From assembly GCF_000757865.1 (NCBI RefSeq), contig NZ_CP007754.1, positions 1,200,001 to 1,232,000 on the forward strand: a DNA stretch of 32,000 nucleotides. Direction: 5' to 3'. Below are positions 1-14,534 of the stretch, piece by piece (positions within the stretch are counted from its first letter, which is position 1; each line of letters opens with the position of its first letter). The DNA comes from Prochlorococcus sp. MIT 0801 (lineage in GTDB: Bacteria > Cyanobacteriota > Cyanobacteriia > PCC-6307 > Cyanobiaceae). Under the pieces are notes generated by a model. It worked only from the letters and a program-made list of their open reading frames with translations. It was not told the origin of the DNA and did no database searches. Position numbers and translations under genes: made by a program.

Positions 1-1194
1 CTCAAGTAAATGATCAATTGTTGGTGCAAGACCATTTGTTCCACCTGCAACGCTACCTATTCCACTTGTGTTGAGAATTCCTCTAGGTTGATTAGATGAT
101 CCTGTTCCTGTAATAGCAGCTAAATCAATTGCCTCTGCAATAACAGCTAGGAAATCACTTCTTACTAAACCCTCTATCTCTGGTGTTGCCTGTAGATCCA
201 TTAAATGACTGAATTTGCTATATGCACCAATGGTTTTGGGTGTCATTGCAATACTGCCTAAAGCTCCAGTTGACTCAGTAATTGAGTCAGAATTGTCTGC
301 ACCAATCCAATAGGCACTGGCTGATCCACTACGAGTAGGAATATCGACATTGCCCACTAATGATGGAAGCATTGTTGCTCCAAGTTCAGCTACAGCAAGG
401 CTGTTTCTGAGACTATCTACAAATCGATCTGCAAGATGTTCAGTCGCAATCAGATTGCCACCAGAAGCAGCAGTGCCAGCCACATAAGCCCTTGTAGACC
501 AACCGTTAGAAGGGACGAAGAAGCCTTGAGTTCTTTTGCCATTAACTCTTTCAAGTTCTGTATTTATTTCTAACTCTCTTCCAGATAAACCTCTGCCAGA
601 TGCGATACCTTTTGCAGCTTGAATAATAGAGAAATTATCTGATTCTCTTGCAAACTCATCTGGAATAGATGTGTTGATTGGTTCGTAGTTTGAAACTGGA
701 GTTGTTGTCATTTGATTAGCAGGAATTGATGTGGAACGATTAACGCCAATAGATGGATCAGCAGGGATTGAAACGATGCTCAACTCAACTGGTTGCCATG
801 AAATAGCTCTTGTTATTTCTTCGTCTTGCTCTACTTGATTGACTTGATATCCAACAGAAATATTTTCCAGAATATTATTTTCAACATCTTTTCTAATCTC
901 TAATGCTCTTGGATTAGTCGCCCATTTAATAGTGGCTTTGCCTCTCTTGTCTTCGATCCAAGCTTTGGTGACTTTGCCCAAAACTTGGTTGGGATCATGG
1001 TTGAACAATAGTGGAGCTGCACCTGTATTTAGACGAGTTAAATCAACAGATTCCTCATCATGGTCGAGTACTTCCTCTCCAAAATATCTTTCTACTGGTT
1101 GCTCACTACTAAATGAAAAAGTGAGATTATCCCGTTCTGTTTGAGCATCCATGGGAAGAAATCTCCTTTTGATTTCAACGGTTTTTGTAGTCAT
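1..1194 (-). CDS. HK97-type prohead serine protease fused to an HK97-family major capsid protein (partial; the C-terminus lies left of the window)
   Basis: Absent from the ORF track because it runs off the window. My reverse-complement translation of 1194->1 is open for 398 codons; 1-300 and 1100-1194 were re-checked codon by codon. N-terminal ~150 aa: MTTKTVEIKRRFLPMDAQTERDNLTFSFSSEQPVERYFG..LLFNHDPNQVLGKV..ENISVGYQV..VELSIVSIPADPS. This is a protease S78/U35-like pattern, with His in LFNHD and Ser in ISVGY. From about aa 190: FSIIQAAKGIASGRGLSGRELEINTELERVNGKRTQGFFVP..AYWIGADNSDSITESTGALGSIAMTPKTIGAYSKFSHLMDLQATPEIEGLVRSDFLAVIAEAIDLAAITGTGSSNQPRGILN, a typical HK97 capsid pattern. A GAGGAAAGGA SD-like purine run lies just upstream of ATG 1194. 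An alternative in-frame ATG is at 1152. Confidence 0.8.
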   Translation of the reverse strand, partial: MTTKTVEIKRRFLPMDAQTERDNLTFSFSSEQPVERYFGEEVLDHDEESVDLTRLNTGAAPLLFNHDPNQVLGKVTKAWIEDKRGKATIKWATNPRALEIRKDVENNILENISVGYQVNQVEQDEEITRAISWQPVELSIVSIPADPSIGVNRSTSIPANQMTTTPVSNYEPINTSIPDEFARESDNFSIIQAAKGIASGRGLSGRELEINTELERVNGKRTQGFFVPSNGWSTRAYVAGTAASGGNLIATEHLADRFVDSLRNSLAVAELGATMLPSLVGNVDIPTRSGSASAYWIGADNSDSITESTGALGSIAMTPKTIGAYSKFSHLMDLQATPEIEGLVRSDFLAVIAEAIDLAAITGTGSSNQPRGILNTSGIGSVAGGTNGLAPTIDHLLE

Positions 1195-1309
1195 TCCTTT
1201 CCTCTTTTTGTAATTGCAGATAACGTCTTCTCATTGGTGAAGTAAGAGCATCATCTAGGACGTGTTTGCACACTCTTGGTGTGTCGTCATCAACTAAAAG
1301 CTGAGTCAT
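1175..1309 (-). CDS. Hypothetical 44-aa protein, translationally coupled to the capsid gene
   Basis: ATG at 1309, TGA at 1177-1175. Translation: MTQLLVDDDTPRVCKHVLDDALTSPMRRRYLQLQKEERNDYKNR. It overlaps the capsid-fusion start by 20 nt (AATGAC arrangement). It is below the 60-aa track cut-off and I recognise no family. Confidence 0.3.
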   Translation of the reverse strand: MTQLLVDDDTPRVCKHVLDDALTSPMRRRYLQLQKEERNDYKNR

Positions 1310-1419
1310 AAAATATTGCGAATAATATATTTTATCTGTAAAAACTATTGGTATAGCTGTTGTTTTGGTGGGTAAATGAAATTAAAAACTAAATAGTATT
1401 ATATGCCAACTAATAACTC

Positions 1420-1680
1420 TTAATTAATGTTAAAACGACTAAAAATGTCTTAAAACAGCTTAAATACATATTTCAATTTCGATACATAATTAATGCTGTC
1501 TCGGTGCCTCAGGTGTCTCGGCATTTTCTATACCTTTCCCAGTATTGTTATCTATCTATAAATTACTACCTTCAACTTTATTATCTGAGACACTGAGGCG
1601 GAAGGGCTAAAGCCCAACCACCAGAACAGGTTTACCCCGCCTCGGAAGAAGCCAAATCTACTGAGGCTTCTGAGGCAGAC
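1420..1680. repeat. Iteron / inverted-repeat cluster next to an AT-rich tract; candidate replication origin of the element
   Basis: TTAAAAC(G/A)(A/G)CT at 1430-1440 and 1450-1460. TGTCTCGG at 1497-1504 and 1514-1521. Inverted repeat GCCTCAGGTGTCTC (1506-1519) / GAGACACTGAGGC (1587-1599). CTGAGGC at 1593-1599, 1661-1667 and 1670-1676; variant GCCTCGG at 1639-1645. The cluster lies immediately 3' of the VirE-type replication gene. Confidence 0.35.
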
Positions 1681-2936
1681 TTTCTCCATAGTCTTGGTTG
1701 CTTGACTCCATTAATTCGTTTTTGATTTTTATCTTGGACGAAACCTAATTCTCTTAGAGCGTTACCAGCTTCCTTACAATCGTGAGCTGTTATACGACCA
1801 CGATCTCTGCAACCACTTAAGTGGAGAGCTGTTTCTGCAGAGAATCCATCTGATCCTTGCTTATTTACCCACTCATACAAGCTTGAATAAAAAGGATGCT
1901 CAGCTTCAAAGTCACTATTATTCAACTCTGATTGAGCATGTTCTTCAGGAGACAGATAACACTTGTAGCCATTTAGATAAGCGAGGTGAGCAGCTTTCCA
2001 AATTCGATCACGATCTTGTTCTATTTTTTCAAGATTAATCTTTTGGTTTGGAAGGCTGATGATATTGAATCGTCTATTACCAGTTGGATCAACGAGAAAA
2101 TCCAATCGGTTGCATGTGCCTACAAGGATGCTGGGCCTTGGGAAAAGTTGAACATTTCTTCCATATGGAACTCTGAATGTATCTGAGGAACTACTAAGTA
2201 AGCCTTTTAAGCTACCCGCATCTTTTTTATTGGTGAGGTGATCTAGTTCTTGAATTTCATGAACCCATCCTCGATGAAGTTGCAGGTAAGCATCCTTCCC
2301 CTCACCAATAGTGGTATCAGAGAACCAATCTTCACCAACAAGAGTTTTAAAACAAGCAGATTTGTTAAGACCTTGCGGACCCTGAAGTATCAGTGCGGTA
2401 TCGAATTTAATTCCAGGTTTAAAAACTCTTGAAACTGCTCCTACCAAACAATTGGCCAACATTCTGTTGTACAAAGATTTGCTTTTGTGATTTTTATCTA
2501 TTGCCAAATACTCTTCAGCAAGAGTATTAATGTCCGCTTCAAATAGGTGATTGTTAGCTAATAAATCAAGAAGGTATTTTTTTATTGGATGATATGGATT
2601 TTTTTGACAGGCAACAATAAAAGCATCGACAGCGGCTTCACTGGTAATTTTAAAACCACGATCAGACAGATGTGTTGATAATTTATCGCTGAATACTGGT
2701 TCTATTCTCTGTCCATCAAGTTCTGGCTCCATTGATAATTCATTCCATGCCAGCCTCGCTCCAAAGTGCTTATTGAGAAGAGTACAAAAATCACCAGCGT
2801 GTAACTTTCTTCTTTTTCCCAAAGATATCCAACCCCACATCCAACCAACAATTGGATTAGTTGAATATGTTGGTCTATTTGGGTCAGGGAAAATCTCTGA
2901 CTCTTCTTGTCCAAAGACTTGAATTTCTTCAATCAT
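1632..2936 (-). CDS. VirE-family / D5-N-like P-loop replication NTPase (SF3-helicase-like) of a mobile element
   Basis: 434-aa ORF. Walker-A-like LILQGPQGLNKS, Walker-B-like GWVHEIQELD, then RVPYGRNVQLFPRPSILVGTCNRLDFLVDPTGNRRF. This pattern is typical of VirE (PF05272-type) proteins of phages and satellites. I saw no toprim or AEP primase motifs in the N-terminal ~170 aa. Confidence 0.75.
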   Translation of the reverse strand: MIEEIQVFGQEESEIFPDPNRPTYSTNPIVGWMWGWISLGKRRKLHAGDFCTLLNKHFGARLAWNELSMEPELDGQRIEPVFSDKLSTHLSDRGFKITSEAAVDAFIVACQKNPYHPIKKYLLDLLANNHLFEADINTLAEEYLAIDKNHKSKSLYNRMLANCLVGAVSRVFKPGIKFDTALILQGPQGLNKSACFKTLVGEDWFSDTTIGEGKDAYLQLHRGWVHEIQELDHLTNKKDAGSLKGLLSSSSDTFRVPYGRNVQLFPRPSILVGTCNRLDFLVDPTGNRRFNIISLPNQKINLEKIEQDRDRIWKAAHLAYLNGYKCYLSPEEHAQSELNNSDFEAEHPFYSSLYEWVNKQGSDGFSAETALHLSGCRDRGRITAHDCKEAGNALRELGFVQDKNQKRINGVKQPRLWRKSASEASVDLASSEAG

Positions 2937-2938
2937 TT

Positions 2939-3289
2939 TTACAACCCCACTGCTTCAATTCGATCAATTACGTCACTAAGATTTTTTGCATATTGCTCGT
3001 GTATTCGGTGCTGTTCAAAAGTGATCTTGATTAACTCTTTCTTTCTGTTGAGGTTGGCTTCGGCTAGAGCTGTATAACCAGTTTGTAATTCTTGAATTTG
3101 TGAAACTAGCGAATAATTCTGAGCGGTTGTCTCGGCTAAATGCTCAATAACGAAATTGAAATCAGCTTTGCTCCACTTTTTCATTAAGTAATTTTTTAAA
3201 TCCTCAACAGTCAGATTGGTTAGGATTGGTGCAGGGTATTCGGACTTCTCGTTTTCTTGTGACGAGGGGCCTTTTTTTTGTGATGTCAT
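2939..3289 (-). CDS. Hypothetical coiled-coil protein of the element (116 aa from ATG 3289; 118 aa from TTG 3295)
   Basis: The ORF is packed between the HTH gene (stop 3292-3294) and the VirE gene (start 2936), with 2-nt gaps on both sides. The sequence is heptad-like and Q/E/L-rich. No family recognised. Confidence 0.55.
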   Translation of the reverse strand: MTSQKKGPSSQENEKSEYPAPILTNLTVEDLKNYLMKKWSKADFNFVIEHLAETTAQNYSLVSQIQELQTGYTALAEANLNRKKELIKITFEQHRIHEQYAKNLSDVIDRIEAVGL

Positions 3290-3291
3290 TT

Positions 3292-3603
3292 TCAAGCACC
3301 CATTTTTTGATAGGTGGCTATCCCTTCGGCTGCTGTAAGAGGAGCCTCTTCAGTAATTTTTGTTTGCTCAATTTGCCAATTTCTAATTTCGTCAACATTG
3401 AACAAAACAGTTGAAGCTTTTTTGCCAGTGCTATACAACCAATGCTTGCCAGCTTCTAATTCACAAGTATTTTTGAGGCTCCACAAAGTTGCCTCAGACA
3501 TTCCCAGCATTTTTGATGCTTGAGATTTTCCAAACCAAGAAATCACTATTAAATAAGTAGTACCGATTATTTGAGACCCGCCCTTTTTCCTCCGTGGAGC
3601 CAA
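3292..3603 (-). CDS. Small HTH DNA-binding protein, excisionase / AlpA-like
   Basis: 103 aa with a TTG start; there is no in-frame ATG upstream of the HTH. ..SQASKMLGMSEATLWSLKN..GKHW..VLFNVDEIRNW resembles MerR-superfamily excisionase/AlpA regulators. It is the first well-supported gene of the leftward operon next to the tRNA. Confidence 0.55.
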   Translation of the reverse strand: MAPRRKKGGSQIIGTTYLIVISWFGKSQASKMLGMSEATLWSLKNTCELEAGKHWLYSTGKKASTVLFNVDEIRNWQIEQTKITEEAPLTAAEGIATYQKMGA

Positions 3604-3640
3604 ATCTAATTAGATCTGGAAGTCTCTCTTCTTTTTAAAA

Positions 3641-3832
3641 TCATTTGGTCAATCCAGCTTCTGGGGCTAATCCGACACCTAATCCAGAAACACGAAAGTC
3701 AGTTACCTTCACTTGGTTCACAGGCAGAACTTCCGCTTCTCCTGATCTTTTGTTTTTGCTTGGGAAGAGAGTGAACTCCTTTTGATACCCAAACGTAGGG
3801 GTGCTTGAAATTAGAAATCTAATCTTGGCCAA
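3641..3832 (-). CDS. Doubtful 63-aa ORF between the HTH gene and tRNA-Pro
   Basis: TTG start, no SD, no recognisable motif. It is co-directional with the element operon. It may simply be regulatory or att-arm DNA. Confidence 0.15.
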   Translation of the reverse strand: MAKIRFLISSTPTFGYQKEFTLFPSKNKRSGEAEVLPVNQVKVTDFRVSGLGVGLAPEAGLTK

Positions 3833-3953
3833 AAGCTAGCTTGATAAATTCCAATCTGCAACAACATATTTAAAAGTCTTGGGAAAAACTAGAAGAATTC
3901 AGGCTGTCACTAGACGCTTTTCCCAATTTTTTCCCAAACTACAATTTCCCATT

Positions 3954-3980
3954 AAAAAAGACAGGCTGGGAAACCTGTCT
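3954..3980 (-). terminator. Rho-independent terminator of tRNA-Pro
   Basis: On the minus strand: AGACAGG-tttcccag-CCTGTCT followed by TTTTTT (plus-strand A-run 3954-3959). It begins 9 nt after the tRNA 3' end. Confidence 0.6.
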
Positions 3981-3988
3981 ATGACTGA

Positions 3989-4062
3989 TCGGGGCGACAG
4001 GATTCGAACCTGCGACCTAGTGCTCCCAAAGCACCCGCGCTACCAAGCTGCGCCACGCCCCG
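3989..4062 (-). tRNA. tRNA-Pro (anticodon UGG)
   Basis: The reverse complement folds by hand into a cloverleaf: CGGGGCG TG GCGC AGCTTGGTA GCGC G GGTGC TTTGGGA GCACT AGGTC GCAGG TTCGAAT CCTGT CGCCCCG A. Length 74 nt, GTTCGAAT T-loop, no encoded CCA. Confidence 0.93.
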
Positions 4063-4378
4063 TCAACCAAGATTGTAGCCCCTGATAGCTGCTAAGAAAA
4101 TATAAATTCCCTAAAGCTTGACTCAATAATGATCAAATAGAATCATTTAGAGAGTTTTGTCACTCGCTATCTATCTAAAGAAAGTTAATGAATAGCCAAT
4201 AAAGACGAATTAAAACGGCGAGACTATGAACGTGAATATTCTTATAAAAAATAGACTATGAAAGTCATCTGTTCATTCGAGAAGGGAACTGCTTAAGGAT
4301 TTCCAGATTTTCATGTAAAGATCATGTACCAAAGATATCCAGTAACACTATCCTCAGTGTATATTCGTAATGATTTAG

Positions 4379-4555: not shown

Positions 4556-4614
4556 GCACCCCATTTTAATATTTCCTTATCACTCGCTATCACTCATTAA
4601 GGGTTTGTCGCATT

Positions 4615-4638
4615 AAAAAAGCCCTGCTACTACAGGGC
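4615..4638 (-). terminator. Terminator-like hairpin downstream of the orphan tRNA-Pro 5' half
   Basis: On the minus strand: GCCCTG-tagtag-CAGGGC followed by TTTTTT. It is preceded on the plus strand by CATTAAAAAAG, the same context as the genuine tRNA terminator at 3951-3960. Confidence 0.45.
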
Positions 4639-4658
4639 TGTTGCTTGTCTAAAATTCC

Positions 4659-4699
4659 GCTCCCAAAGCACCCGCTCTACCGAGCTGCTCCACGCCCTG
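4659..4699 (-). pseudogene. tRNA-Pro 5'-half fragment (anticodon loop to 5' end); a copy of the upstream flank continues to ~4775
   Basis: gctcccaaagcacccgCtctaccGagctgcTccacgcccTg aligns to 4022-4062 of the intact gene with 4 mismatches. The following ~75 nt (4700-4775) align to the flank at 4063-4140, for example gatagctgc and ataaattc. Confidence 0.8.
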
Positions 4700-4909
4700 T
4701 CAATTAAGATCGTAGCCACTGATAGCTGCCAATAGAAAATAAATTCTCAAAAATTTTGACTAATAATAATGAATTACAATTTTGCAATGATTTTTTGACC
4801 TTATTTTTCAAGCTTTCCTACAAAACAATATTTATAAACATCTAAAAAAATATAGTTTTTTTTTAGATTCCAAGAACTATTTTTTGAGGAATACTAAGAC
4901 AAATTCTGA

Positions 4910-5899
4910 TCAATTACATATAGGGACTTCTGCAATACCCCAATTGTAAGGCCAATAAGCATCATCTTCTAATCCATAATATTCTTTAGGGTTGACTGGT
5001 TCTTGCCACCATCCATTTAATCCCCCATGTCTTTCTGCATGACCAGAGGGATCCTTCATTAACAAATGGAAACCTCCTGCTTGTCCACTCTGATGATATT
5101 GATTATTCCAGCCACCTTGCCCTGCCCCATAGGGGGATTCAAAATCTTCATCTAAATCATTACCATTAGCCCAATTAAAATCACCTTCAGAATCTGAACT
5201 CAATCCAATCCAAGCTCCTGCACGAAGTCCATCTCCCCAGTTAGGATCAGGCGAAGACAACTTATCTGTATAAGTATCTATTAAATACTGATTCTCATCT
5301 GTGTTATTTGGAGTCGTTAAAAAGCCACCTAATTTCTGGGCGTTATCATTAGCCTCGGTCCATGATGAACCTTTGATTAAAACATAAGCCGAACACCCTC
5401 TTTTAGATAAAGAGTCGGGCATTATGACATCAGCATTTTTGATTATCAATCCTTCAAGAGACTGGTCATCAGAAGAACCACAAATTGCATTTAAACAAGC
5501 ATTAAAGTTTATTCCACTTAACCCTTTAAATGAATATGACAAAAGATTTGTACTAGCCTCAAGAATAAATGAAGGAAAAACCGATGAATTGCTTGGGGTA
5601 GCGCTAATTAATCCATTTGATTGATTACCACTACAACTATTTGAACCATCAGATTGGATTTGATAAGAATTTAAATTGCTTGAAGTAAATGTACCTGCGT
5701 TACCCGTATCAATTCTATTAATTTCACATTCAGTTTGAATTTGTTTCATTGCTGCCAATGCAGCAGTCGCCTGAGCTTTTCTCTGGAAGCAGCTAAACGT
5801 GGGGATTGCAATCGCAGATAGGACTGCCAGTACAGAAACAACAACTACTAGTTCAATCAAAGAGAATCCTTCTTCTTTTAAGTGATTCTTTAAAACCAT
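4910..5899 (-). CDS. Type IV prepilin-like N-terminus fused to a C-type-lectin-like C-terminal domain (paralog 1)
   Basis: 329-aa ORF. Prepilin signal KEEG|FSLIELVVVVSVLAVLSAIAIP (Gly-1, Phe+1, Glu+5). C-terminal ~170 aa: GCSAYVLIKGSSWTEANDNAQKLGGFLTTPNNTDENQYLI..GAWIGLSSDSEGDFNWANG..VPICN. This has CTLD hallmarks: W-x-EA, GG-x-L, WIGL and a terminal Cys. Confidence 0.7.
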   Translation of the reverse strand: MVLKNHLKEEGFSLIELVVVVSVLAVLSAIAIPTFSCFQRKAQATAALAAMKQIQTECEINRIDTGNAGTFTSSNLNSYQIQSDGSNSCSGNQSNGLISATPSNSSVFPSFILEASTNLLSYSFKGLSGINFNACLNAICGSSDDQSLEGLIIKNADVIMPDSLSKRGCSAYVLIKGSSWTEANDNAQKLGGFLTTPNNTDENQYLIDTYTDKLSSPDPNWGDGLRAGAWIGLSSDSEGDFNWANGNDLDEDFESPYGAGQGGWNNQYHQSGQAGGFHLLMKDPSGHAERHGGLNGWWQEPVNPKEYYGLEDDAYWPYNWGIAEVPICN

Positions 5900-6096
5900 T
5901 GGATAATAGATCTAAGGCATTAAATGTATTGTTTTTAATTCTGGCTAAATAAAAAAATGTCGACTAACATTTATAGTATATCTATACAAAACGTGTTCTA
6001 TTTATAGCTTTACAAACTAGAGACTCTGGCCTCTATCAACTATCAAGAAATCCTTGGGCACTAAAAACAGTGAATAAGTTAATAAATCCTTTATTT

Positions 6097-6139
6097 GACA
6101 GATAGTGATTTCGAACTGCGACCTAGCGTTCCCTATGCA
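6097..6139 (-). pseudogene. tRNA-Pro 3'-half fragment (acceptor/T-arm to anticodon loop)
   Basis: gacag[atagt]gatttcgaactgcgacctagcgttccctatgca aligns to 3996-4033 of the intact gene. The T-arm GATTCGAAC..GCGACCTAG is well kept. It sits 16 nt below the stop of the second pilin-lectin gene. Confidence 0.7.
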
Positions 6140-6154
6140 AATCAAATATGGCTT

Positions 6155-7090
6155 TTAATTACATGCTAGCTCTACCATTCCTTGTCCATCATGTCTTGTA
6201 GCAGGGAAGTCATTCCATGTGATGTCTCCGTTTTGTTGTATTACAAGTGAGCTGAAATTACCATCCCAGTCCATTCCTTCACCTATGCCCCAGAAGCCAG
6301 GGCGATAAGAAGAACTTTCCCCTGAGACCCAACCGTCTGAATGACCTGCAGCATTTTGAAGCTTCTCGCCTGTATCACCGCTTCTTGTGAGACCAATATG
6401 TATATTTCTAACCCCCCATGAATCCTGTGGGATATTTTGCCCAATCTCTAGATAGGTTTCAGCTATCCATCTATCCTCTGCCTCATCATTAATTGTGACC
6501 AAATTACCTCCAATTGCTACTGCATTCGCCTGAGCATCACTCCACTTTGGTCCGTCAACTAAGACATAGCATGAATTATTTCTCTTGAAAAAAGTGTCTT
6601 TTTGTACAAATTCATAGGATTCTAATTCAGTCTGAAATTCCGTTGTACTCCCAGCATTTCCATTAAAACAAATCATACTTAAACATTTCGAGAAATCAGT
6701 TCCTGTCTCCCCTTTAAAGCTATATGTTAGTTGACTATTGTTAATAGCCAATATGAAAGTAGGTAATAAGTTTGTATCGTTTGGTATTGCACTAATCAGT
6801 CCGGTTTCCGAGACACCTCCGCAACTGTTACTGCTAGTTCCATCTGATTGAATCTGATAAGAATTTAAATTGCTTGAAGTAAACGTACCTTCGATACCCG
6901 TATCAGCTTTATTAATTTCACACTCAGTTTGAATTTGTTTAATCGCTGCTAAAGCAGCAGTTGCTTTTGACTTACGCTGAAAACAATTGAAAGTAGGTAC
7001 TGCAATTGCAGATAATACAGAAAGCACAGAAACTACAATTACTAGCTCAATTAATGAAAAGCCTTTTTCTGATTCATTTTTCATAATCAT
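6155..7090 (-). CDS. Type IV prepilin-like N-terminus fused to a C-type-lectin-like C-terminal domain (paralog 2)
   Basis: 311-aa ORF. SEKG|FSLIELVIVVSVLSVLSAIAVP. C-terminal: SCYVLVDGPKWSDAQANAVAIGGNLVTINDEAEDRWI..IHIGLTR..GDITWNDFPATRHDGQGMVELACN, including a CTLD-like WND motif and terminal Cys. The first ~145 aa are clearly homologous to paralog 1; the lectin-like part has diverged. Confidence 0.7.
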   Translation of the reverse strand: MIMKNESEKGFSLIELVIVVSVLSVLSAIAVPTFNCFQRKSKATAALAAIKQIQTECEINKADTGIEGTFTSSNLNSYQIQSDGTSSNSCGGVSETGLISAIPNDTNLLPTFILAINNSQLTYSFKGETGTDFSKCLSMICFNGNAGSTTEFQTELESYEFVQKDTFFKRNNSCYVLVDGPKWSDAQANAVAIGGNLVTINDEAEDRWIAETYLEIGQNIPQDSWGVRNIHIGLTRSGDTGEKLQNAAGHSDGWVSGESSSYRPGFWGIGEGMDWDGNFSSLVIQQNGDITWNDFPATRHDGQGMVELACN

Positions 7091-7290
7091 TAGGACTAGG
7101 AAATAATCAAACTTATTTATTAACTTTAATTCTGGCTAAAAATTTAAATAATTAAACTATTTAAGCTAGAAATTATATAATCATTAAATTATTGTCACCT
7201 AAAAGCCTAAAAACTTGGCAAAATTATTTTAAGTTTTTACTTATGAAGTTATTTGGGAATCAATCTGTCGAATTTATCAAAACCGAATGA

Positions 7291-7362
7291 TCAGAAGGAC
7301 AAGATTAAAACATGCGGTCTAGCTCTCCAAAAGCATCCGCGCTGCCAAGCTGCGCAACGCCT
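7291..7362 (-). pseudogene. Full-length but decayed tRNA-Pro copy
   Basis: tcagaaggacaagattaaaacatgcggtctagctctccaaaagcatccgcgctgccaagctgcgcaacgcc aligns end-to-end with 3989-4060. The acceptor and T-arm pairing are destroyed. The left flank (atgatc) also resembles the genuine flank (ctgatc). Confidence 0.7.
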
Positions 7363-7585
7363 AACTTACGAAATTGATCTTAAGGCTTCAATGATGCTTA
7401 AGTACAAGAATTAAAAAACACAACCAAATACACCCGTGTAAAAAGCATTAGTCAGGTTCTCTTCTTGGTAAGTTTGAGCATTGCAGTTAGAAAAATCAGA
7501 AAAAACCTGACACATTTAAATTTAGCCCAAAAAACTATGAACTCGTGGTAATTCCTCCCAATAGCTAAGATTAAAACTGTTAACA

Positions 7586-7756
7586 GTGAATCCTTTGGCC
7601 CCTCATTTAGATCACCCTTTCTTAGTATTTACTTGGCACTTACTTGTAGGGTACCTTCTCACTGTTAGTTGTGACTGGAACTGGATTCCTTTGAATAACG
7701 AGGAGAAAAAGAGGGGTCCATCTCTAGATCAAATTAGAGGTAAAATATTTAGCTGA
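7586..7756 (+). CDS. Possible 56-aa single-TM protein or gene remnant (GTG start)
   Basis: (M)NPLAPHLDHPFLVFTWHLLVGYLLTVSCDWNWIPLNNEEKKRGPSLDQIRGKIFS. It is open from the TAG at 7565-7567 to the TGA at 7754-7756 and has no ATG. It lies in a locally GC-richer patch in an AT-rich context. Below the track cut-off. Confidence 0.3.
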   Translation: MNPLAPHLDHPFLVFTWHLLVGYLLTVSCDWNWIPLNNEEKKRGPSLDQIRGKIFS

Positions 7757-8076
7757 AAAGTGAACAAATAAAAAACTTTTACTCGAGAAACAGATGTATT
7801 AATTAAAGATTAGTTTAATAGTTTTTAGGAAGTTGATAAATAAAATTGCTCAAAAGGTAGGAAAAGCTCATATCTCCTTTAATTGTAATAGCATTAATAT
7901 AAGTAAATGAAGTTATTTATTTGATTTTAAAAATGTTTTTTCTCTAAAAATATTTAATAGGATAATTTTATAGATTCATTAAAACACATTTAAAAAATTA
8001 GTCATTTTTCTCTCCTTTTTTAATCACAGAAAAGGGAAAATCCTTTCATAATAAATGTATCTATTTAAGTTAGTCA

Positions 8077-8475
8077 GTGAAACTGATACCAAATTTTGCT
8101 GAATTGCTGCATGACGTAAAATTACCAACGGCTGAAAAATGCTTTTTTATTGAAGAAGGCGATGAAAAGTACATCGAGAAATTGATAAGTAAAGGAGAAC
8201 TCACATGCGACTTAGAAAAACTCTTCAATTGGATCAACCTAGAGTACAAACTGAAGAAAAAAAATTTAAATAACGAAGAAAGACAACTTGCTGAAGAAGT
8301 AAAAAAGAGATTCCCTGTGGACAAATGGCGTGTTATAAAAATCTTTAGTGATCATCAACAAAAATATCGATACTACAAAAAGGCAATTGAAGACGTGAAA
8401 AGACGAACAACTCCTCGTATGAACGAACAAGCAATTATGACTATTTTCAGCCCAGGCCGGGGTATAAATACCTAG
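8077..8475 (+). CDS. Hypothetical 132-aa K/E-rich protein (GTG start)
   Basis: Track ORF. The opposite-strand ORF 8070..8324 is an S/F-rich low-complexity mirror image. No family recognised. Confidence 0.45.
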   Translation: MKLIPNFAELLHDVKLPTAEKCFFIEEGDEKYIEKLISKGELTCDLEKLFNWINLEYKLKKKNLNNEERQLAEEVKKRFPVDKWRVIKIFSDHQQKYRYYKKAIEDVKRRTTPRMNEQAIMTIFSPGRGINT

Positions 8476-8517
8476 GTATGGTATAATTACTTATGAGTTA
8501 TTAAACATTTGAATTTC

Positions 8518-8610
8518 ATGATTAATAAGTATCCCTTGATTCCTTTCCTTATTTTCGCCGGAGCACTAGTAAGCACAGCAACAATTGGTTTGCCAGTATT
8601 TGCTGGATAA
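8518..8610 (+). CDS. Possible 30-aa hydrophobic peptide
   Basis: MINKYPLIPFLIFAGALVSTATIGLPVFAG. An extended -10-like TGGTATAAT ends at 8487, about 30 nt upstream of the ATG. Confidence 0.25.
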   Translation: MINKYPLIPFLIFAGALVSTATIGLPVFAG

Positions 8611-8988
8611 TTACAACAAAACCAAAAATCTCTCCAAACAAAAGATATTGCCCTTTAACTTAAATAAAGAAAAAAAAAGAAAATAGTATTCAACTTTATT
8701 TTAATTCAATACGAATATAGTTAAATAAATTTTTTTTATTTAACTTTAATATTATTTCTCTAAAATTGCATACCAATAATTAAATAGAAAATACGAAGAG
8801 TATAAAAATATCCCTAGGTAAACCCAATTAAGCCACTCAGGCCGCTTATTACCGGTAGCCATTAAATCTAATTAATATACTATCAATATATTATACTTAT
8901 ACATATAAGGTTTGACTCTTAGCTGCTAAAGCTTTACGTTAATTCTAAAAGTTAAAAACCAAAAGTAATTACATAAGGGGAGGTATTT

Positions 8989-9489
8989 ATGAAAAAACAA
9001 TATAAGTTTCTCCAAAAGCACACGAATGAATTCATTACCACTTTCAAAAGTTTAAGAGGAAACATATGGTCATTAAACTTTCCAGTTTTTCTTTTTGATA
9101 GAGATTGGTTCAGGCTCAAAAAAATTACCCTTTATGATTTAGCCAAAGAACTTAAACCAGACAATTCACAGGAAGCACCTGAAATAATTCAATATCAACA
9201 ATTACTCAATGATGGTCACGATCATTTACTTGCAATTCAAGAATGTTGGAACGAATTTGGAATTGAAGATTTTCATCGATCCCTTAGAAACTCTTCTGAG
9301 TGGAAATTAAAAGGAAATAATGGATGGACATTCAAAAAATACGCTGAACTTATAACTGGATATAGAAATATTATTGAAAGCAAAGAAATTCTTATACCAA
9401 TAATTATTTTAGGCAGGAATAAAAATGAAGATCACCAACTTGAATGGATAAGCGAAGAATTCATTTCTGAACTTACATTCGCAGATTAA
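8989..9489 (+). CDS. Hypothetical 166-aa soluble protein
   Basis: The strongest SD in the island (AAGGGGAGG, 6 nt before the ATG). Non-repetitive composition. No family recognised. Confidence 0.65.
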   Translation: MKKQYKFLQKHTNEFITTFKSLRGNIWSLNFPVFLFDRDWFRLKKITLYDLAKELKPDNSQEAPEIIQYQQLLNDGHDHLLAIQECWNEFGIEDFHRSLRNSSEWKLKGNNGWTFKKYAELITGYRNIIESKEILIPIIILGRNKNEDHQLEWISEEFISELTFAD

Positions 9490-9519
9490 AAATATAGAAA
9501 AGCTTTATATAAAGAAGTT

Positions 9520-9696
9520 TCAAGCAATAGTTAAATCATCCGATCTCGTTCCCCACTCTGTATCTTCCAAAAGATCAGAGTAGCAAGAGGCATTTACCAA
9601 GTTATATTTTTGAAATTTCCAATCTGAATCTTCAAGGTAATCTGAGTACTCAAATGTTTTCGCAAGAAGAGAGAATTCCTTACTAAAAGGGCACAT
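9520..9696 (-). CDS. Possible 58-aa acidic protein
   Basis: MCPFSKEFSLLAKTFEYSDYLEDSDWKFQKYNLVNASCYSDLLEDTEWGTRSDDLTIA. ATG 9696, TGA 9522-9520, with an upstream in-frame TGA at 9717-9715. Convergent with 8989..9489. Confidence 0.3.
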   Translation of the reverse strand: MCPFSKEFSLLAKTFEYSDYLEDSDWKFQKYNLVNASCYSDLLEDTEWGTRSDDLTIA

Positions 9697-9867
9697 GGAG
9701 ATTATGCAATTTTTTCAATCATTCACACTACCAGGGCTAAAAGCAACTGAATATTATAATTCCTAAATATTTAGATAGAATAATTAAGTAGCAAAACAAG
9801 GAATTACATCAATTTAAATGAAAGCCTGTAATAGAATATTTAACGATAAAGACCTCTTTAAAAAACA

Positions 9868-10158
9868 ATGGGTTACATCAAAAAGGAAAAGCAAGGAGAA
9901 TTTGATTTCGAGAAGCTCCCTGAGGGTATATATTTCTTTTCAGGCAAAGAGGGATTCGTAAAAGTAGAAGTAAATAAAGATGGACATCAGTCTTGGGATT
10001 TACAAAATTGGTTTGACTCTTTAGATCCAGACAAAGATGAGGCGCAACATCAAAAAACAATTCAAGACATCAAAAGAAGATTAAACGCAGATACTGGAAT
10101 TATTAATCCCTCTGAAAAACAGGAGAAGAAAAAATTTTTAAACCTCTTTAGCAAATAA
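9868..10158 (+). CDS. Hypothetical 96-aa protein
   Basis: Track ORF with an ATG start and a K/E/D-rich, non-membrane sequence. No family recognised. Confidence 0.5.
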   Translation: MGYIKKEKQGEFDFEKLPEGIYFFSGKEGFVKVEVNKDGHQSWDLQNWFDSLDPDKDEAQHQKTIQDIKRRLNADTGIINPSEKQEKKKFLNLFSK

Positions 10159-10171
10159 GCAAACTCTAAAC

Positions 10172-10513
10172 TTATTCAAGAAATAGAAATATTCGATTTA
10201 CCGCTAATCCAATTAGAAAATATCTTAACAATGTACACCAAGCATATAAATATACACATTGATAATCTGTCTTTGAGACTTCTTCACCTTTGTGAATTAA
10301 TAAAAGATTAAATCTATAATTTGAATTATTTTTAACAAGAAGAACGACACATAAAACTAATGATACCAAAACATTCTCATTCAAAAATAAAATGAAGGCA
10401 ATAAAAAAAGATATATTTGAAATCAAGTCAATTAATGGAATAAATGTAGCAGGCAAAACCAGAAGATTAGAAAAAATATATATAACTCTGCTATAATTTA
10501 GCCAAGAAGACAT
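10172..10513 (-). CDS. Hypothetical 113-aa multi-pass membrane protein
   Basis: Track ORF with 3-4 hydrophobic segments, in very AT-rich DNA. Confidence 0.4.
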   Translation of the reverse strand: MSSWLNYSRVIYIFSNLLVLPATFIPLIDLISNISFFIAFILFLNENVLVSLVLCVVLLVKNNSNYRFNLLLIHKGEEVSKTDYQCVYLYAWCTLLRYFLIGLAVNRIFLFLE

Positions 10514-10770
10514 TTTCTAAGATAAATATATATCTATCTTTAGCAAATAATTAAGCTAATGGCAATTTTTCAAGTCAAAACTCATTAAAGGGTAAATGAA
10601 TAAGCTATAAATAATCTAACCTATTAAGAGAAGGCAGAAGTCAATAATAGGAAATACAAGGTATGTACAGAAATATAAGGTATTTGTCTAACATGTCTTT
10701 ATATGTATTTTTTTTCATAAATCTAAAAAAGCCTTTAAAGAAGTTAATATTAAAGTAAAGAACTAATAAA

Positions 10771-11016
10771 ATGGAAATATTTCTGCTTCTTTCTTTAATC
10801 CTTTTAACGGTTTTTTTTGTTTTCAAAAAAGTTTTTTATTCGGCAAAGAGAAATCTTTTCAAGAATCAAGCGGAATGGTTTAGCAAAGATATAAAAATAA
10901 AATACAGTAAATCAAAAGAAATTTCAGCATTAAAAAAGCATGATAACTATCTAAAAATAATTGCTGACGAGTCAAAATGCTTTTTAGACGAACAATCAAG
11001 TCAAGATTATGAGTGA
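10771..11016 (+). CDS. Hypothetical 81-aa protein with an N-terminal TM helix
   Basis: MEIFLLLSLILLTVFFVF followed by a K-rich tail. Confidence 0.4.
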   Translation: MEIFLLLSLILLTVFFVFKKVFYSAKRNLFKNQAEWFSKDIKIKYSKSKEISALKKHDNYLKIIADESKCFLDEQSSQDYE

Positions 11017-11067
11017 AACCTATTAAATTAAACTATAAAAAAACAGAAACTCTCAATTTAATTAAAA

Positions 11068-11304
11068 ATGTACTATCAATTATTATTCATTAATAATATA
11101 TATTTCCTTTTAATAAAGAATATTTTACTTGATATGACGATAAATAATCCTATTTTCATTTTTGCACTCATAATAGTTATTTGGTTCATTCCAGGAATTT
11201 TAGTTAGAAGGATTAATGAATTAAAACAGATAAAGAAAACTAAAAAGAGACAAGCTGATGCTATTAATAAACTATATCCAAATCCAAAAGATTCTTCTAA
11301 TTAA
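11068..11304 (+). CDS. Hypothetical small membrane protein (78 aa; 56 aa if it starts at ATG 11134)
   Basis: TM helix IFIFALIIVIWFIPGILV followed by a basic tail, RRINELKQIKKTKKRQ. Confidence 0.4.
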   Translation: MYYQLLFINNIYFLLIKNILLDMTINNPIFIFALIIVIWFIPGILVRRINELKQIKKTKKRQADAINKLYPNPKDSSN

Positions 11305-11492
11305 CTAAAAAATGATATTGTATTTATTAAATTTTAGACTATAAATAAACAGATTTTTAGAATATTAGATCTTTGTGTAAAGTGACTTATGTTGTTTTAA
11401 TATTAAAGCAAAGTCATCAAATATATATCTTTTAATATTAGAAGTATTTTTTAGATATAATGAGTTAATCTAATAAGAAAGAGATTCTGTTG

Positions 11493-11768
11493 ATGATGGT
11501 AAGGAAGCTAGGACAATATGGTGGCTACTTACTTAGTGGAATATTAATAGCATGGCTAATAAATCCAATAGCAGCGCTAGCTTTTCTTGAGATTTTTCTA
11601 AAAATGACGTTATTAATATCTATTCCTATCTCAGGAGCTTATTTGTTAGAAAAGATTATCCTTTTAAAGCATCAAAAAGCATGGAATATAATTCTTCCTA
11701 CATGGATAATATTAAGTATCTATTTCAGTTTCAGGTTAGTTAAATTAATAGAAAGCCTTATTGATTAA
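11493..11768 (+). CDS. Hypothetical 91-aa three-TM membrane protein
   Basis: ATG 11493 (the track start, TTG 11490, is one codon upstream). TATAAT at 11456-11461. Confidence 0.45.
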   Translation: MMVRKLGQYGGYLLSGILIAWLINPIAALAFLEIFLKMTLLISIPISGAYLLEKIILLKHQKAWNIILPTWIILSIYFSFRLVKLIESLID

Positions 11769-11996
11769 ATATTTATATCTTTTTTTAAGATTATTGAGGA
11801 ATTATGTTTTATGAATAGATAGTTAATTTATTTGGCGATTATAAATTTATTCTAATCTAATCAGACAATTACGAATTCAAAAAATTATTTTCATAAAATC
11901 AAGAATAGTACCTAATTTTATTCATTCATAAAATCCATAGCATTTCTAGAAGTTAAAATATCCGACCTTGTCGAAAGAATTCATGCTTTATGGATA

Positions 11997-12272
11997 ATGA
12001 TTAATACAGTAAAAAATTTGAACAACATGGTGCTTCCTTTTCTTACTGCAATATTTTTCCCTGATTATGGTTATCAGGGTATTCCCTGGGATTTGTACTT
12101 ACTTCATTTTTTCTTCTTTGCGATTGTAATTCCATTTCATGTAATTATTTTTGCTGCCCGTAGCGCTCAGACCGTCAAGCCAAACGGAGTAAAGGACTGG
12201 CTTAAGTGGGAATCCAAGGCAACTAAAGACGACTTGGATTCAATGTTTCCAAACGATTTCCCTACCGCTTAA
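11997..12272 (+). CDS. Hypothetical 91-aa membrane protein
   Basis: Two hydrophobic segments followed by a charged C-terminal tail. Confidence 0.45.
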   Translation: MINTVKNLNNMVLPFLTAIFFPDYGYQGIPWDLYLLHFFFFAIVIPFHVIIFAARSAQTVKPNGVKDWLKWESKATKDDLDSMFPNDFPTA

Positions 12273-12376
12273 CTCTCTAAAAAGCCTTTTAAAAATGTCC
12301 GAATTTATCAAGGTGCTACAACTTCATTAAATTTGGGCAATTTTAGGTTTATATATATACCTGCATCTAAAAAAAA

Positions 12377-12520
12377 ATGCTTCATTTGCCATTCTTAACC
12401 TTTGCTTTAGGAGGGGGAAGCCTCTCAGCAACAATTGTCGGTGTTGGATCCCTAGTTCTCTTTGGACTTGTTGGTGTAATTGCTGGGCCAAATCTTTCTA
12501 AATTTGATTCTGAAGCTTAG
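12377..12520 (+). CDS. Possible 47-aa Gly-rich hydrophobic peptide
   Basis: MLHLPFLTFALGGGSLSATIVGVGSLVLFGLVGVIAGPNLSKFDSEA. Below the track cut-off. Confidence 0.3.
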   Translation: MLHLPFLTFALGGGSLSATIVGVGSLVLFGLVGVIAGPNLSKFDSEA

Positions 12521-12953
12521 GGAGATAGCCATTATTTCAAAAAGCTTTTGCTAAGCTTCCCAAATAGACATATTTTTAGATTTTAAAAATCTATCTAGGG
12601 AATCCAATTCTTTAACAGAACTTTCTTCCATCAAGAGTTTTAACCTTGGTGGAATTTTTTTATATACATTTGCCAAAAAATACCTCAAAATCCATTACAA
12701 AATCTATGAAAATATAGATAAAATGGGACCTCACAGAGACAATCAAAATAGTAAGATAGATTAGTAAAACTTATAGCTTCTATGATCGTCTATTATGAGG
12801 CTTGATTAGTTGCAGCTCTGACTTATAAATTATTAATAAATTAATTTACAAAGTTTAATTAAATGGAAATGAATCCTTATAAGCCTTTGATACAAGCTTT
12901 TAAAAAAATCTACAAAAACTTCAAGTAATAGATCAGGAAAATTTAATGTGCAG

Positions 12954-14480
12954 TTAATGTGCCGATTTAAATTCCCCACCTCTTCCCCCAGCTTCTGATG
13001 CTTGTCCTATTCGAGAAAATAAATTCAAGCTTTCATCATTTAAATTAATAACTTCAACCTCAGACCCCCCTAATTTTATTCTTCTAATTACTTGGTCAAG
13101 AACCGTAACGCCGCTTTGATCCCAAATATGGGCTTCTGCCATATCTATTGTAATTTTTTTAGGATGTTCATGTAGTTCAAAACCTTGTCTAAAGTAAATG
13201 CTACTAACAAAAAATAATTGGCCTGAAACTTTATAAATCCTGTGATCTGCACCATTCAAAGAAGACTCAACCTTAATAACTTTTGCGACCTTTCTACTAA
13301 ATAATATTGCTGCAAGTCCAACACCGGAAAGAAGACCAAGAGCTAAATTATGTGTAATAACAGTTACGAATACAGTCAATATCATAACTGAACTATCGCT
13401 TCGAGGAATTCGGCGAATATCTTTAATTGATATCCAATTAGCAGTATTTATAGCAATCATTATCATAACCCCAACCAATGTTGCCATTGGTATTTGATTT
13501 ACCCAATCCTTAGCCGCAAGAATCATCGCTATTAAACAAACGCCAGAGCTTAATGTTGAAAGACGAGTTCTTCCCCCATAACCCACATTCATAACCGATT
13601 GTCCAACCAAGGCGCATCCAGCCATCCCTCCAAAAAGCGAACTAACAATATTTCCCATACCTTGCCCTCTAGCCTCAACATTTTTATTAGTACTTTTATC
13701 AGTCATATCATCAAGAATATCTTGAGTCAGGAATGTCTCCATAAGGCCAACCAAAGAAATTGCTAGTGCTGTTGGAAGTATCAAACCAAGTGTTTCAAAA
13801 TTAAATGGAACTTTTGGAATACCAAAGCTAGGCAATCCATTTGGGAGAATTCCTAAATTCGATACAGTTGGAACATTTAATTTAAATAAAATTGAAATCG
13901 CTGTACAAATAAAAATCGCGACCAATGCAGATGGCAAAAGCTTAGTAAATTTAGGTAGCAAATAGATAATTAACAATGTAAGTATGGTCAAGCCCCAAAC
14001 AGCAGGTACTTGGACTGCAGCAACAACTTTCTCAGAATGTGCTAGGTCGATTCCTAAATGAGGCAATTGAGCAAGGAAGATCAATATTGCTAAACCATTT
14101 ACAAAGCCATCCATAACCGGTTGAGGTACAAATCTCATCTGATGAGCAAGCCTTAAATACCCCCAAGCAATCTGAAGAACTCCCGTAAGCAATCCAGCAG
14201 CCAAAAGATATTGCAGACCAAGGCCAGGGCTAATATTTTCACCCTGTTGAACAATCCCGGTCATCAAAAGAGCAGTTGAACCAGTCACTGAGGTAATCAT
14301 GGCCATTCTGCCCCCAAAAATTGCAAGGGTGACAGAAAGCAAAAAAGCACCAAACAGCCCAACTCTTGGATCAACGCCTGCAATACCAGAAAAAGCTATC
14401 GCCTCTGGGATCATTGCGAATGCAACAACAAGACCAGCAATAACATCGCGGGAAGGAGAGACGATTCTCTCCTTTACCAT
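12954..14480 (-). CDS. SulP-family anion (sulfate/bicarbonate-type) permease with a C-terminal STAS domain
   Basis: A ~510-aa polytopic protein. RDVIAGLVVAFAMIPEAIAFSGIAG is the typical SulP N-terminal motif. The C-terminal soluble domain (..YKVSGQLFFVSS..VINLNDES) is STAS-like. ATG at 14480; an in-frame TTG at 14498 is the track start. Confidence 0.9.
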   Translation of the reverse strand: MVKERIVSPSRDVIAGLVVAFAMIPEAIAFSGIAGVDPRVGLFGAFLLSVTLAIFGGRMAMITSVTGSTALLMTGIVQQGENISPGLGLQYLLAAGLLTGVLQIAWGYLRLAHQMRFVPQPVMDGFVNGLAILIFLAQLPHLGIDLAHSEKVVAAVQVPAVWGLTILTLLIIYLLPKFTKLLPSALVAIFICTAISILFKLNVPTVSNLGILPNGLPSFGIPKVPFNFETLGLILPTALAISLVGLMETFLTQDILDDMTDKSTNKNVEARGQGMGNIVSSLFGGMAGCALVGQSVMNVGYGGRTRLSTLSSGVCLIAMILAAKDWVNQIPMATLVGVMIMIAINTANWISIKDIRRIPRSDSSVMILTVFVTVITHNLALGLLSGVGLAAILFSRKVAKVIKVESSLNGADHRIYKVSGQLFFVSSIYFRQGFELHEHPKKITIDMAEAHIWDQSGVTVLDQVIRRIKLGGSEVEVINLNDESLNLFSRIGQASEAGGRGGEFKSAH

Positions 14481-14534
14481 TAAATTTTTCAATTTCAAAA
14501 CTACGCTTCTACCATCCTGCCTTATTAGACATGC

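Follow-up and report, generated by a model that had tools for sequence, protein, structure and literature searches.

Type IV pilins with C-type-lectin-fold heads, carried as cassette-like genes in a tRNA-Pro island of Prochlorococcus sp. MIT 0801

Modular pilins, which join a pilin module through a linker to a domain that is not specific to pili, have been defined from more than 1,200 proteins with 264 architectures, lectin-type modules included (Raynaud et al. 2021, PMC8179133). In Streptococcus sanguinis, PilB and PilC each set such a C-terminal effector domain (vWA and concanavalin-A-like, respectively) behind a class III pilin module and a short linker (PMC8179133; Shahin et al. 2023, PMC9934059). 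Here we describe two tandem genes of the same layout, A and B, in a 32,000-nt stretch of Prochlorococcus sp. MIT 0801 (contig NZ_CP007754.1, positions 1,200,001 to 1,232,000; hereafter the window), a strain of clade LLI with a GC content of about 35%. By this layout both products are modular pilins, and the role proposed for them is the one proposed for PilB and PilC, presentation of a binding module on the pilus. The differences are several: the heads have a C-type lectin fold rather than a vWA or concanavalin-A-like one; the host is a free-living, planktonic, diderm phototroph rather than a monoderm pathogen; several paralogues occur per genome, with interchangeable heads on one stalk; and the genes, which we know from sequence and models, are island cassettes outside the pil operon.

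The pili of marine picocyanobacteria themselves are built from PilA1 and PilE (Aguilo-Ferretjans et al. 2021, PMC7994388), and we assume the same machinery here, the organism group being the same. PilA1 and PilE are small, mature PilA1 having about 140 aa, and carry no extra domain. Protein A is letter-for-letter Pro_MIT0801_1509 of Supplementary Data 1 of that study, where it stands in the PilE column as a BLAST match (E 3e-06) that rests on the shared N-terminal helix; it also carries the rarer GFSLxE motif noted there (PMC7994388). Neither a lectin head nor a multi-paralogue family is mentioned in that paper, from which the word ‘lectin’ is absent, and modular pilins and lectins likewise go unmentioned in a 2025 review on the pili of cyanobacteria. 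The combination of N-methyl and C-type lectin domains is listed for three proteins, as IPR012902-IPR001304, in Dataset S1 of Raynaud et al. (2021, PMC8179133). An earlier note on this stretch, made by a reader who saw the letters without their source, did not recognise the architecture as that of a described family; this holds in so far as the lectin head passes without comment in either paper, and fails in that the combination is listed and protein A is tabled as a PilE match. The architecture is thus already catalogued, while the lectin-headed, cassette-borne ocean family is itself unstudied: our search of the literature on lectin-headed pilins in Prochlorococcus, C-type-lectin type IV pilins or island-borne pilins returned nothing relevant.

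The two genes are intact and paralogous, their products sharing 53% identity across 230 aa (BLASTP, E 2e-67). Identity is concentrated in the pilin module of about 130 aa (70%) and falls to 27–37% in the C-terminal domain (about 36% for the heads when stalk and head are compared separately), so that the conserved shaft and divergent head claimed in the earlier note are borne out, as are its two tandem genes with prepilin site and hydrophobic helix. The motifs that it quoted can all be read in A and B, respectively: GCSAYVL and NSCYVL, WTEA and WSDA, GGFL..N..E and GGNL..ND..E, WIGL and HIGL, ICN and ACN, with WND in B only. It had also reported a run of 27 identical nucleotides; the run exists (5661-5689 = 6855-6883) and is 29 nt long. 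We considered it as a recombination or regulatory signal, which it probably is not: it encodes the conserved FTSSNLNSYQ, for the most part with the AT-rich codons that are preferred, and its core is also present in further members of the family.

Each protein begins with a class III signal peptide, the hallmark of type IV pilins. Protein A opens with MVLKNHLKEEG followed by FSLIELVVVVSVLAVLSAIAIP, protein B with MIMKNESEKG followed by FSLIELVIVVSVLSVLSAIAVP, and the prepilin sites read KEEG/FSLIELV and SEKG/FSLIELV (the slash marking the predicted cut). Both leaders are short and basic; Gly stands at -1, Phe at +1 and Glu at +5, and about 20 hydrophobic residues follow. Scores exceed the cut-offs of Pfam N_methyl (PF07963; 24.0 bits for A and 26.7 for B, cut-off 21.2) and NCBIfam TIGR02532 (24.4 and 28.7 bits, cut-off 16.3), and alpha1 helices of solved pilins from Geobacter, Pseudomonas, Neisseria and Myxococcus match the N-terminal helix down to E 3e-8, or 2e-14 with the family profile. 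AlphaFold2 (AF2) models built from family alignments (A, pLDDT 83.6, pTM 0.72; B, pLDDT 81.2) show a 52-residue alpha1 helix (residues 14-65 in A, 13-64 in B) and then a sheet of four to five strands, placed at residues 79-129. This is the long alpha1 on an antiparallel sheet that characterizes the pilin fold, although the solved pilins matched the helix and not the globular part alone. The PilA1 of MIT 0801 is 38% identical to A across 128 aa, agreeing with it at 22 of the 24 residues that open the mature protein, and 49% identical to B across 79 aa; to judge from these alignments, the stalk is a pilin domain of the PilA1 type, and its assembly helix matches.

Profile and fold searches (Pfam, a family profile, and Foldseek with the AF2 models) place a C-type lectin-like domain (CTLD) at the C-terminus of both proteins, as the earlier note had proposed from the motifs. 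Pfam Lectin_C (PF00059) recognizes A at 23.9 bits, just over its cut-off of 22.6, and the MIT 0801 paralogue P0025 at 42.7 bits; B taken singly has no Pfam Lectin_C match. A profile of 73 family members matches CTLDs in the PDB with E-values from 6e-26 (multi-CTLD receptors) to about 1e-6 (single carbohydrate-recognition domains), and a profile from B-type heads alone matches BDCA-2 (E 8e-5) and mincle (E to 2e-3). Foldseek against the PDB returns CD23, MGL, mincle and CL-K1 for the A model (E 1e-5, TMt 0.7–0.78) and mincle, BDCA-2 and dectin-2 for the B model (E 7e-7, TMt about 0.7, up to 0.79), the top 50 matches being CTLDs without exception for either model. Therefore the two heads share one fold, and the possibility that the C-termini are unrelated folds falls away.

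In the models the head is a compact alpha/beta domain set behind a short linker. Against animal CTLDs (mincle, CD23, BDCA-2, dectin-2, MGL) the heads score TM about 0.7 over the whole target at 16–23% identity, and they share with them the alpha1 signature W..A...C/GG.L, the WIGL motif, the predicted outer disulfide and, in B, WND. The core C..Y.L, W..A, GG.L, E, WIGL (A) or HIGL (B) and the C-terminal Cys is kept in alignments, in which the cysteines of the predicted outer disulfide, C169 and C328, are nearly invariant. A differs from the animal domains in its long long-loop insertions, and its head carries a 22-residue insertion ahead of the last strand. In B and its nearest head relatives (P0034, P0042 and P0068) the first CTLD Cys is shifted by two residues (NSCYVL versus GCSAYVL) and the C-terminus is one residue shorter (LACN versus VPICN), a pattern that resembles a compensated displacement of the outer disulfide. 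A search for homologues of the head only gave nine matches, mostly fragments, with no non-pilin architecture among them, and did not reveal where the head originated.

Besides A and B, MIT 0801 encodes at least three paralogous modular type IV pilins, P0025 (294 aa), P0043 (329 aa) and P0078 (569 aa), the last with a PD40 beta-propeller head. Among the five, stalks are 70–95% identical and heads 27–41%; the extreme is P0025 versus P0043, with stalks 94.6% and heads 36% identical. Beyond the strain, 255 database proteins match at E <= 1e-3, nearly all of them unnamed and from marine metagenomes or single-cell genomes, and 40 of the best 120 have a precomputed PF00059 match. Intact homologues number in the hundreds in ocean metagenomes; a metagenome scan with an alignment-based query returned members of the family, and one with protein A alone returned none. 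Across 107 members, stalk and head identity are weakly correlated (r = 0.26): 44 pairs combine a stalk identity of at least 85% with a head identity of at most 40%, and 31 pairs combine a head identity of at least 70% with a stalk identity of at most 65%. Such weak coupling and discordant pairs are the pattern expected if stalks and heads recombine, in keeping with the cassette swapping that the earlier note had suggested. Between A and B, synonymous sites are saturated in every segment (proportion of differing sites, pS, 0.64–0.81), whereas nonsynonymous divergence (dN) is 0.15–0.28 in the stalk and 0.75–0.86 in the head. The low stalk dN in the face of saturated synonymous sites indicates that A and B are old paralogues whose stalk is under purifying selection. 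Recent gene conversion as the source of stalk conservation was discarded, since the synonymous sites of the stalk are as saturated (pS 0.64–0.77) as those of the head.

The wider family also places these genes in a particular genomic setting. Elsewhere in the genus, single-cell genomes show pilin loci packed with clean direct repeats that correspond to the final 43–50 nt of tRNA-Pro (positions 25/29-74), and consecutive repeats of this 3' half enclose single pilin genes. One locus (L005) reads repeat, 341-aa lectin pilin, repeat, 188-aa pilin, repeat; another (L012) packs ten tRNA-Pro copies, one of them full and nine partial, into 17 kb; three more hold small pilins between 3'-half repeats. 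Conventional small pilins (150–200 aa) are thus also single-gene units between tRNA-Pro repeats, at all five of these loci, and six metagenome contigs carry a modular pilin between such repeats. One further metagenome contig (L090, CETG01187083.1) is syntenic with window positions 8074-9568 at 77% and, compared over 5362-9568, carries an A-like gene right after a tRNA-like remnant, in the place that B takes in the window; these related genomes thus differ in cassette order or content. The tRNA-Pro island therefore carries pilin genes, those with lectin heads among them, as cassette-like cargo whose content varies between related genomes; the earlier note’s description of mobile cargo agrees with the many Prochlorococcus genomes and metagenome contigs in which tRNA-Pro fragments enclose a single pilin gene. 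No integrase was seen inside the pilin units. Site-specific integrations would leave tRNA-Pro attachment-site scars between single-gene units of about 1–1.2 kb, and this arrangement would explain a repertoire that differs between cells.

In the window, too, the genes are bounded by tRNA-Pro fragments, which are real, as the earlier note held, if degraded (Table 1). Following transcription, one meets in turn the degenerate tRNA copy, gene B, the short remnant, gene A, a copy of the tRNA flank and 5' half, a copy of the terminator hairpin, and the real tRNA. The remnant downstream of gene A is more than a simple attachment-site scar: comparison of 4577-4795 with 3947-4171 shows the tRNA-Pro locus copied whole, with flank, 5' half, terminator hairpin and a 15-nt box TT(G/A)TCACTCGCTATC, minus the 3' half of the tRNA. 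The copied hairpin likely terminates the gene A transcript. A second 15-nt motif, TTAGCCAGAATTAAA on the coding strand, stands at equal spacing before both ATGs, and therefore the duplicated unit took in the upstream region. It may be a lineage-specific promoter or 5' untranslated region element, and it was not found upstream of the pilin genes in 161 other loci compared.

Table 1. Pilin genes, tRNA-Pro copies and neighbouring features of the window.
Feature	Position	Strand	Basis
Phage-satellite-like element directly downstream of tRNA-Pro	1-3832	minus	
Peptidase_S78 + Phage_capsid fusion open reading frame (ORF; prohead protease/capsid), >398 aa, runs off the window’s left end	within 1-3832	minus	
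VapE-type primase/helicase, 434 aa	1632-2936	minus	
Two small ORFs of the satellite-like element	2939-3603	minus	
Intact tRNA-Pro(tgg), genomic-island anchor	3989..4062	minus	ARAGORN
Hairpin + T-run, copy of tRNA-Pro terminator (3959-3980)	4620..4639	minus	terminator scan; repeat family
Pseudo-tRNA-Pro downstream of gene A: tRNA positions 3-41 (4659-4697, 92%) + ~96-nt upstream-flank copy; 77% overall	4659..4795	minus	repeat search; blastn
Gene A, modular type IV pilin, 329 aa	4910..5899	minus	intact ORF; N_methyl + Lectin_C above Pfam cut-offs; AF2/Foldseek
Gene A stop codon	4910-4912	minus	
Gene A CTLD head, residues 166-329	4913-5404	minus	
Gene A linker, residues 142-165	5405-5476	minus	
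Gene A pilin module, residues 12-141	5477-5866	minus	
Gene A leader, residues 1-11	5867-5899	minus	
15-nt motif, ends exactly 34 nt before gene A ATG	5934..5948	minus	repeat family + motif scan
tRNA-Pro remnant, 33 nt, 76%, between gene B and gene A upstream region	6107..6139	minus	repeat family; 11-nt exact blastn core
Gene B, modular type IV pilin, 311 aa	6155..7090	minus	intact ORF; N_methyl above cut-off; AF2/Foldseek; head profile
Gene B stop codon	6155-6157	minus	
Gene B CTLD head, residues 168-311	6158-6589	minus	
Gene B shifted-Cys sites, residues ~172-175 and 308-311	6566-6577 and 6155-6166	minus	
Gene B linker, residues 143-167	6590-6664	minus	
Gene B pilin module, residues 11-142	6665-7060	minus	
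Gene B leader, residues 1-10	7061-7090	minus	
15-nt motif, ends exactly 34 nt before gene B ATG	7125..7139	minus	repeat family + motif scan
Degenerate full-length tRNA-Pro copy, 78%, upstream of gene B	7285..7361	minus	repeat family; blastn; not called by ARAGORN
SulP transporter gene	12954-14498		

Taken together, A and B in our judgement probably display alternative binding heads on the PilA1 pilus. The class III signal peptide would be cut by prepilin peptidase after the Gly (KEEG/FSLIE in A, SEKG/FSLIE in B), the protein would enter the pilus via its hydrophobic N-terminal helix, almost the same as that of PilA1, and filament assembly would fall to the PilB/PilC/PilQ machine, whose genes are located elsewhere on the chromosome. 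The PilA1-type stalk with its matching helix is the main reason for expecting co-assembly. In such a pilus the PilA1-like module of about 130 aa would act as carrier, and the linker of about 25 residues would hold the CTLD of about 145–165 aa off the filament to serve in binding, the tip or scattered sites along the fibre being its most likely positions. Possible ligands are glycans, particles, other cells and the surfaces of predators. The heads are almost wholly different in the long-loop half, the ligand site in known CTLDs, and therefore the paralogues would confer different specificities. None of the pilus machine is encoded within the window. The assembly machinery on which the earlier note’s proposal depends is reported for MIT 0801 as regards PilA1 (1246), PilC (1242), PilQ (1235) and PilB (1244) (Supplementary Data 1, PMC7994388), and the LLI strains NATL1A, NATL2A and PAC1, which have no pilus apparatus in that survey, have no pilin matches either (PMC7994388), so that pilins and machinery occur together.

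A number of observations weigh against this reading. A prepilin peptidase (PilD) and minor-pilin genes were not seen in the window, and PilD is not listed in the table of PMC7994388. Expression, processing and localization of A and B are predictions. Were every subunit to bear a head of about 19 kDa, the filament lattice might not accommodate it, and it is for this reason that a minor or tip role is favoured. The heads, unlike animal CTLDs, lack the EPN or QPD motif (B has GEGMD opposite the GEPNN of BDCA-2) and the inner long-loop disulfide, neither protein having a Cys at either of the two positions (B has F and A residues where BDCA-2 carries its C..C pair); WND is kept only in B-type heads, A having LNG at that position. 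The pairing of EPN or QPD with WND that marks true Ca2+-dependent carbohydrate recognition is thus found in neither A nor B, and we therefore file the head as a CTLD fold rather than a proven lectin. Of the glycan-binding head that the earlier note had envisaged, the fold stands and the sugar site does not; sugar binding would be an analogy, and many CTLDs bind proteins or other ligands. As for the island, the tRNA-Pro remnants in the window are degraded and of another type (a 5' half, a full-length copy) than the clean 3'-half repeats elsewhere, and no integrase was seen adjoining the pilin cassettes.

Each paralogue might be a major subunit that forms its own thick, lectin-coated filament instead of a minor component of the PilA1 pilus, given that the stalk is homologous to PilA1 across the entire pilin domain and that some single-cell genomes place a lectin-type pilin among several small pilins with no obvious hierarchy. 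Raynaud et al. (PMC8179133) moreover allow a position in the filament body where the linker is flexible, and the linker of B is modelled at low confidence (pLDDT below 50 at residues 143-148); the same authors argue for exposure at the tip. The conventional PilA1 adjoins the machinery genes (1242-1246), whereas the modular pilins lie about 260 genes off, in the island, and that one stalk should come with five alternative heads is easier to reconcile with a shared slot than with a filament for each. We know of no major pilin with a folded extra domain of about 165 aa, and consider this arrangement unlikely. Slightly less likely still is a protein processed like a pilin but acting as a pseudopilin or membrane anchor, its CTLD lying in the periplasm or at the surface and binding, for example, the cell’s own envelope glycans. 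Heads without a canonical sugar site leave the ligand open, and NCBIfam does return GspG/GspH-type pseudopilin matches; these are far below their cut-offs, however, and confined to the shared N-terminal helix, whereas the stalk resembles the PilA1 of MIT 0801 past the helix, and the joint lack of apparatus and pilins in NATL1A, NATL2A and PAC1 also speaks for a tie to the pilus.

Decay of the island offers a different explanation, under which the genes are non-functional remains of old integrations. It would account for flanking tRNA-Pro copies worn to 76–78% identity, for the lack of an adjoining integrase and for the absence of protein A, though not of B, from a large protein database. Both reading frames are intact, however, with signal peptide, Cys pattern and CTLD core conserved; the stalk dN is far below the saturated dS, intact homologues number in the hundreds in ocean metagenomes, and the upstream motif is common to both genes at identical spacing, so that we regard decay as improbable. 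The C-type lectin fold is also the classic scaffold of variable proteins of diversity-generating retroelements (DGRs), such as Mtd of Bordetella phage or TvpA of Treponema, and the variable part of the heads is the C-terminal half. Here, heads differ by whole-domain divergence with indels rather than by adenine-templated substitutions, no template/variable repeat pair lies near either gene, and the window ORFs scanned contain no reverse-transcriptase domain; the chance that a DGR is at work seems to us close to nil.

Prochlorococcus is Earth’s most abundant phototroph and is usually pictured as a bare, free-drifting cell. To our knowledge, drag, by which the cell stays afloat, and escape from grazers are the only roles with which its pili have been connected to date. 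Folded, interchangeable binding heads on pilus subunits would imply that some cells hold something specific by their pili, and what the heads target, be it sugars, particles, partner bacteria or phage (as a decoy), is now a testable question. Cassettes between tRNA-Pro repeats provide a concrete case for the exchange of surface traits in a streamlined genome, and the modular-pilin concept gains a multi-paralogue case from an environmental diderm, in which heads of C-type lectin fold receive attention for the first time.

The setting invites comparison with the tycheposon islands of Prochlorococcus, for which Proline_tgg is among seven island tRNAs (Hackl et al., bioRxiv 10.1101/2020.12.28.424599); that preprint makes no mention of pili. 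As there, tRNA-Pro(tgg) adjoins the locus, partial tRNA copies are found in it, and an element resembling phage-inducible chromosomal islands (PICIs) is integrated at the tRNA. Tycheposons have their own tyrosine or serine recombinase and a replication module, between a full and a partial tRNA; the pilin units, although tRNA remnants accompany them, bring neither a recombinase nor a replication gene, being single genes, or ‘island genes’ in the terms of Hackl et al. The satellite-like element at 1-3832 itself fits their PICI-like tycheposons, and any integrase of it would lie past the window edge.

Seen across genomes, the tRNA-Pro island looks like a pilin-cassette array. Integron arrays likewise hold single promoter-proximal genes between short direct repeats and are hypervariable, which we offer as an analogy only; here, unlike in integrons, the repeat is a tRNA 3' half and not an attC hairpin, cassettes lie in both orientations, and no IntI-type integrase or Pc promoter was seen. 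We tentatively suggest, with more doubt than confidence, that the island might serve as an integron-like store of pilin cassettes, small and lectin-headed alike, which tycheposon-type recombinases would insert, excise and reshuffle while recombination of stalks and heads makes new heads. Neighbouring cells would then differ in their pilus binding and receptor repertoires, driven by phage or grazer pressure or by particle or partner specificity.

The pilin module, but not the head, has a counterpart among phage protein families. PHROG phrog_27437, of unassigned function, matches residues about 4-100 (E 1e-14 to 5e-15), in B past the signal peptide, which suggests that some phages encode related pilin-like proteins. 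Phage origin or carriage of the pilins was considered and set aside: A and B have no close relatives in IMG/VR, BFVD gave only CTLDs of eukaryotic viruses, and the PHROG matches are confined to the N-terminal part of the pilin. On the other side of the cassettes, the island continues as a very AT-rich part (about 7400-12900) whose ORFs have no family matches; between the cassettes and the SulP gene, GC falls to 23–26% at 10001-12000, where the ORFs are short and without Pfam or PHROG match. From 12954 onward genes are again recognizable, including those for SulP, a GidA-family protein, PdxJ, RecC and RecB.

Three observations on the records and relatives of these proteins may be added. Protein B is 100% identical to P0058, a protein of Prochlorococcus sp. 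MIT 0801, and is present in a collection of 5.8 billion proteins in which protein A has no identical entry (best match 76%), although A does stand in the Cyanorak-based table of PMC7994388. NCBI names both P0025 and P0058 ‘nuclease (SNase-like) protein’; no match in this analysis supports the name, which looks like a mis-annotation. Finally, a single locus of Prochlorococcus sp. AG-676-M04 (L010, 5923-10978) has three modular pilins of about 320 aa with a different N-terminal helix (GFSLIELIVVLIITAIL) and three different heads, and among them, besides tRNA-Pro fragments, lies a tRNA-Thr(cgt) at 8093-8166.

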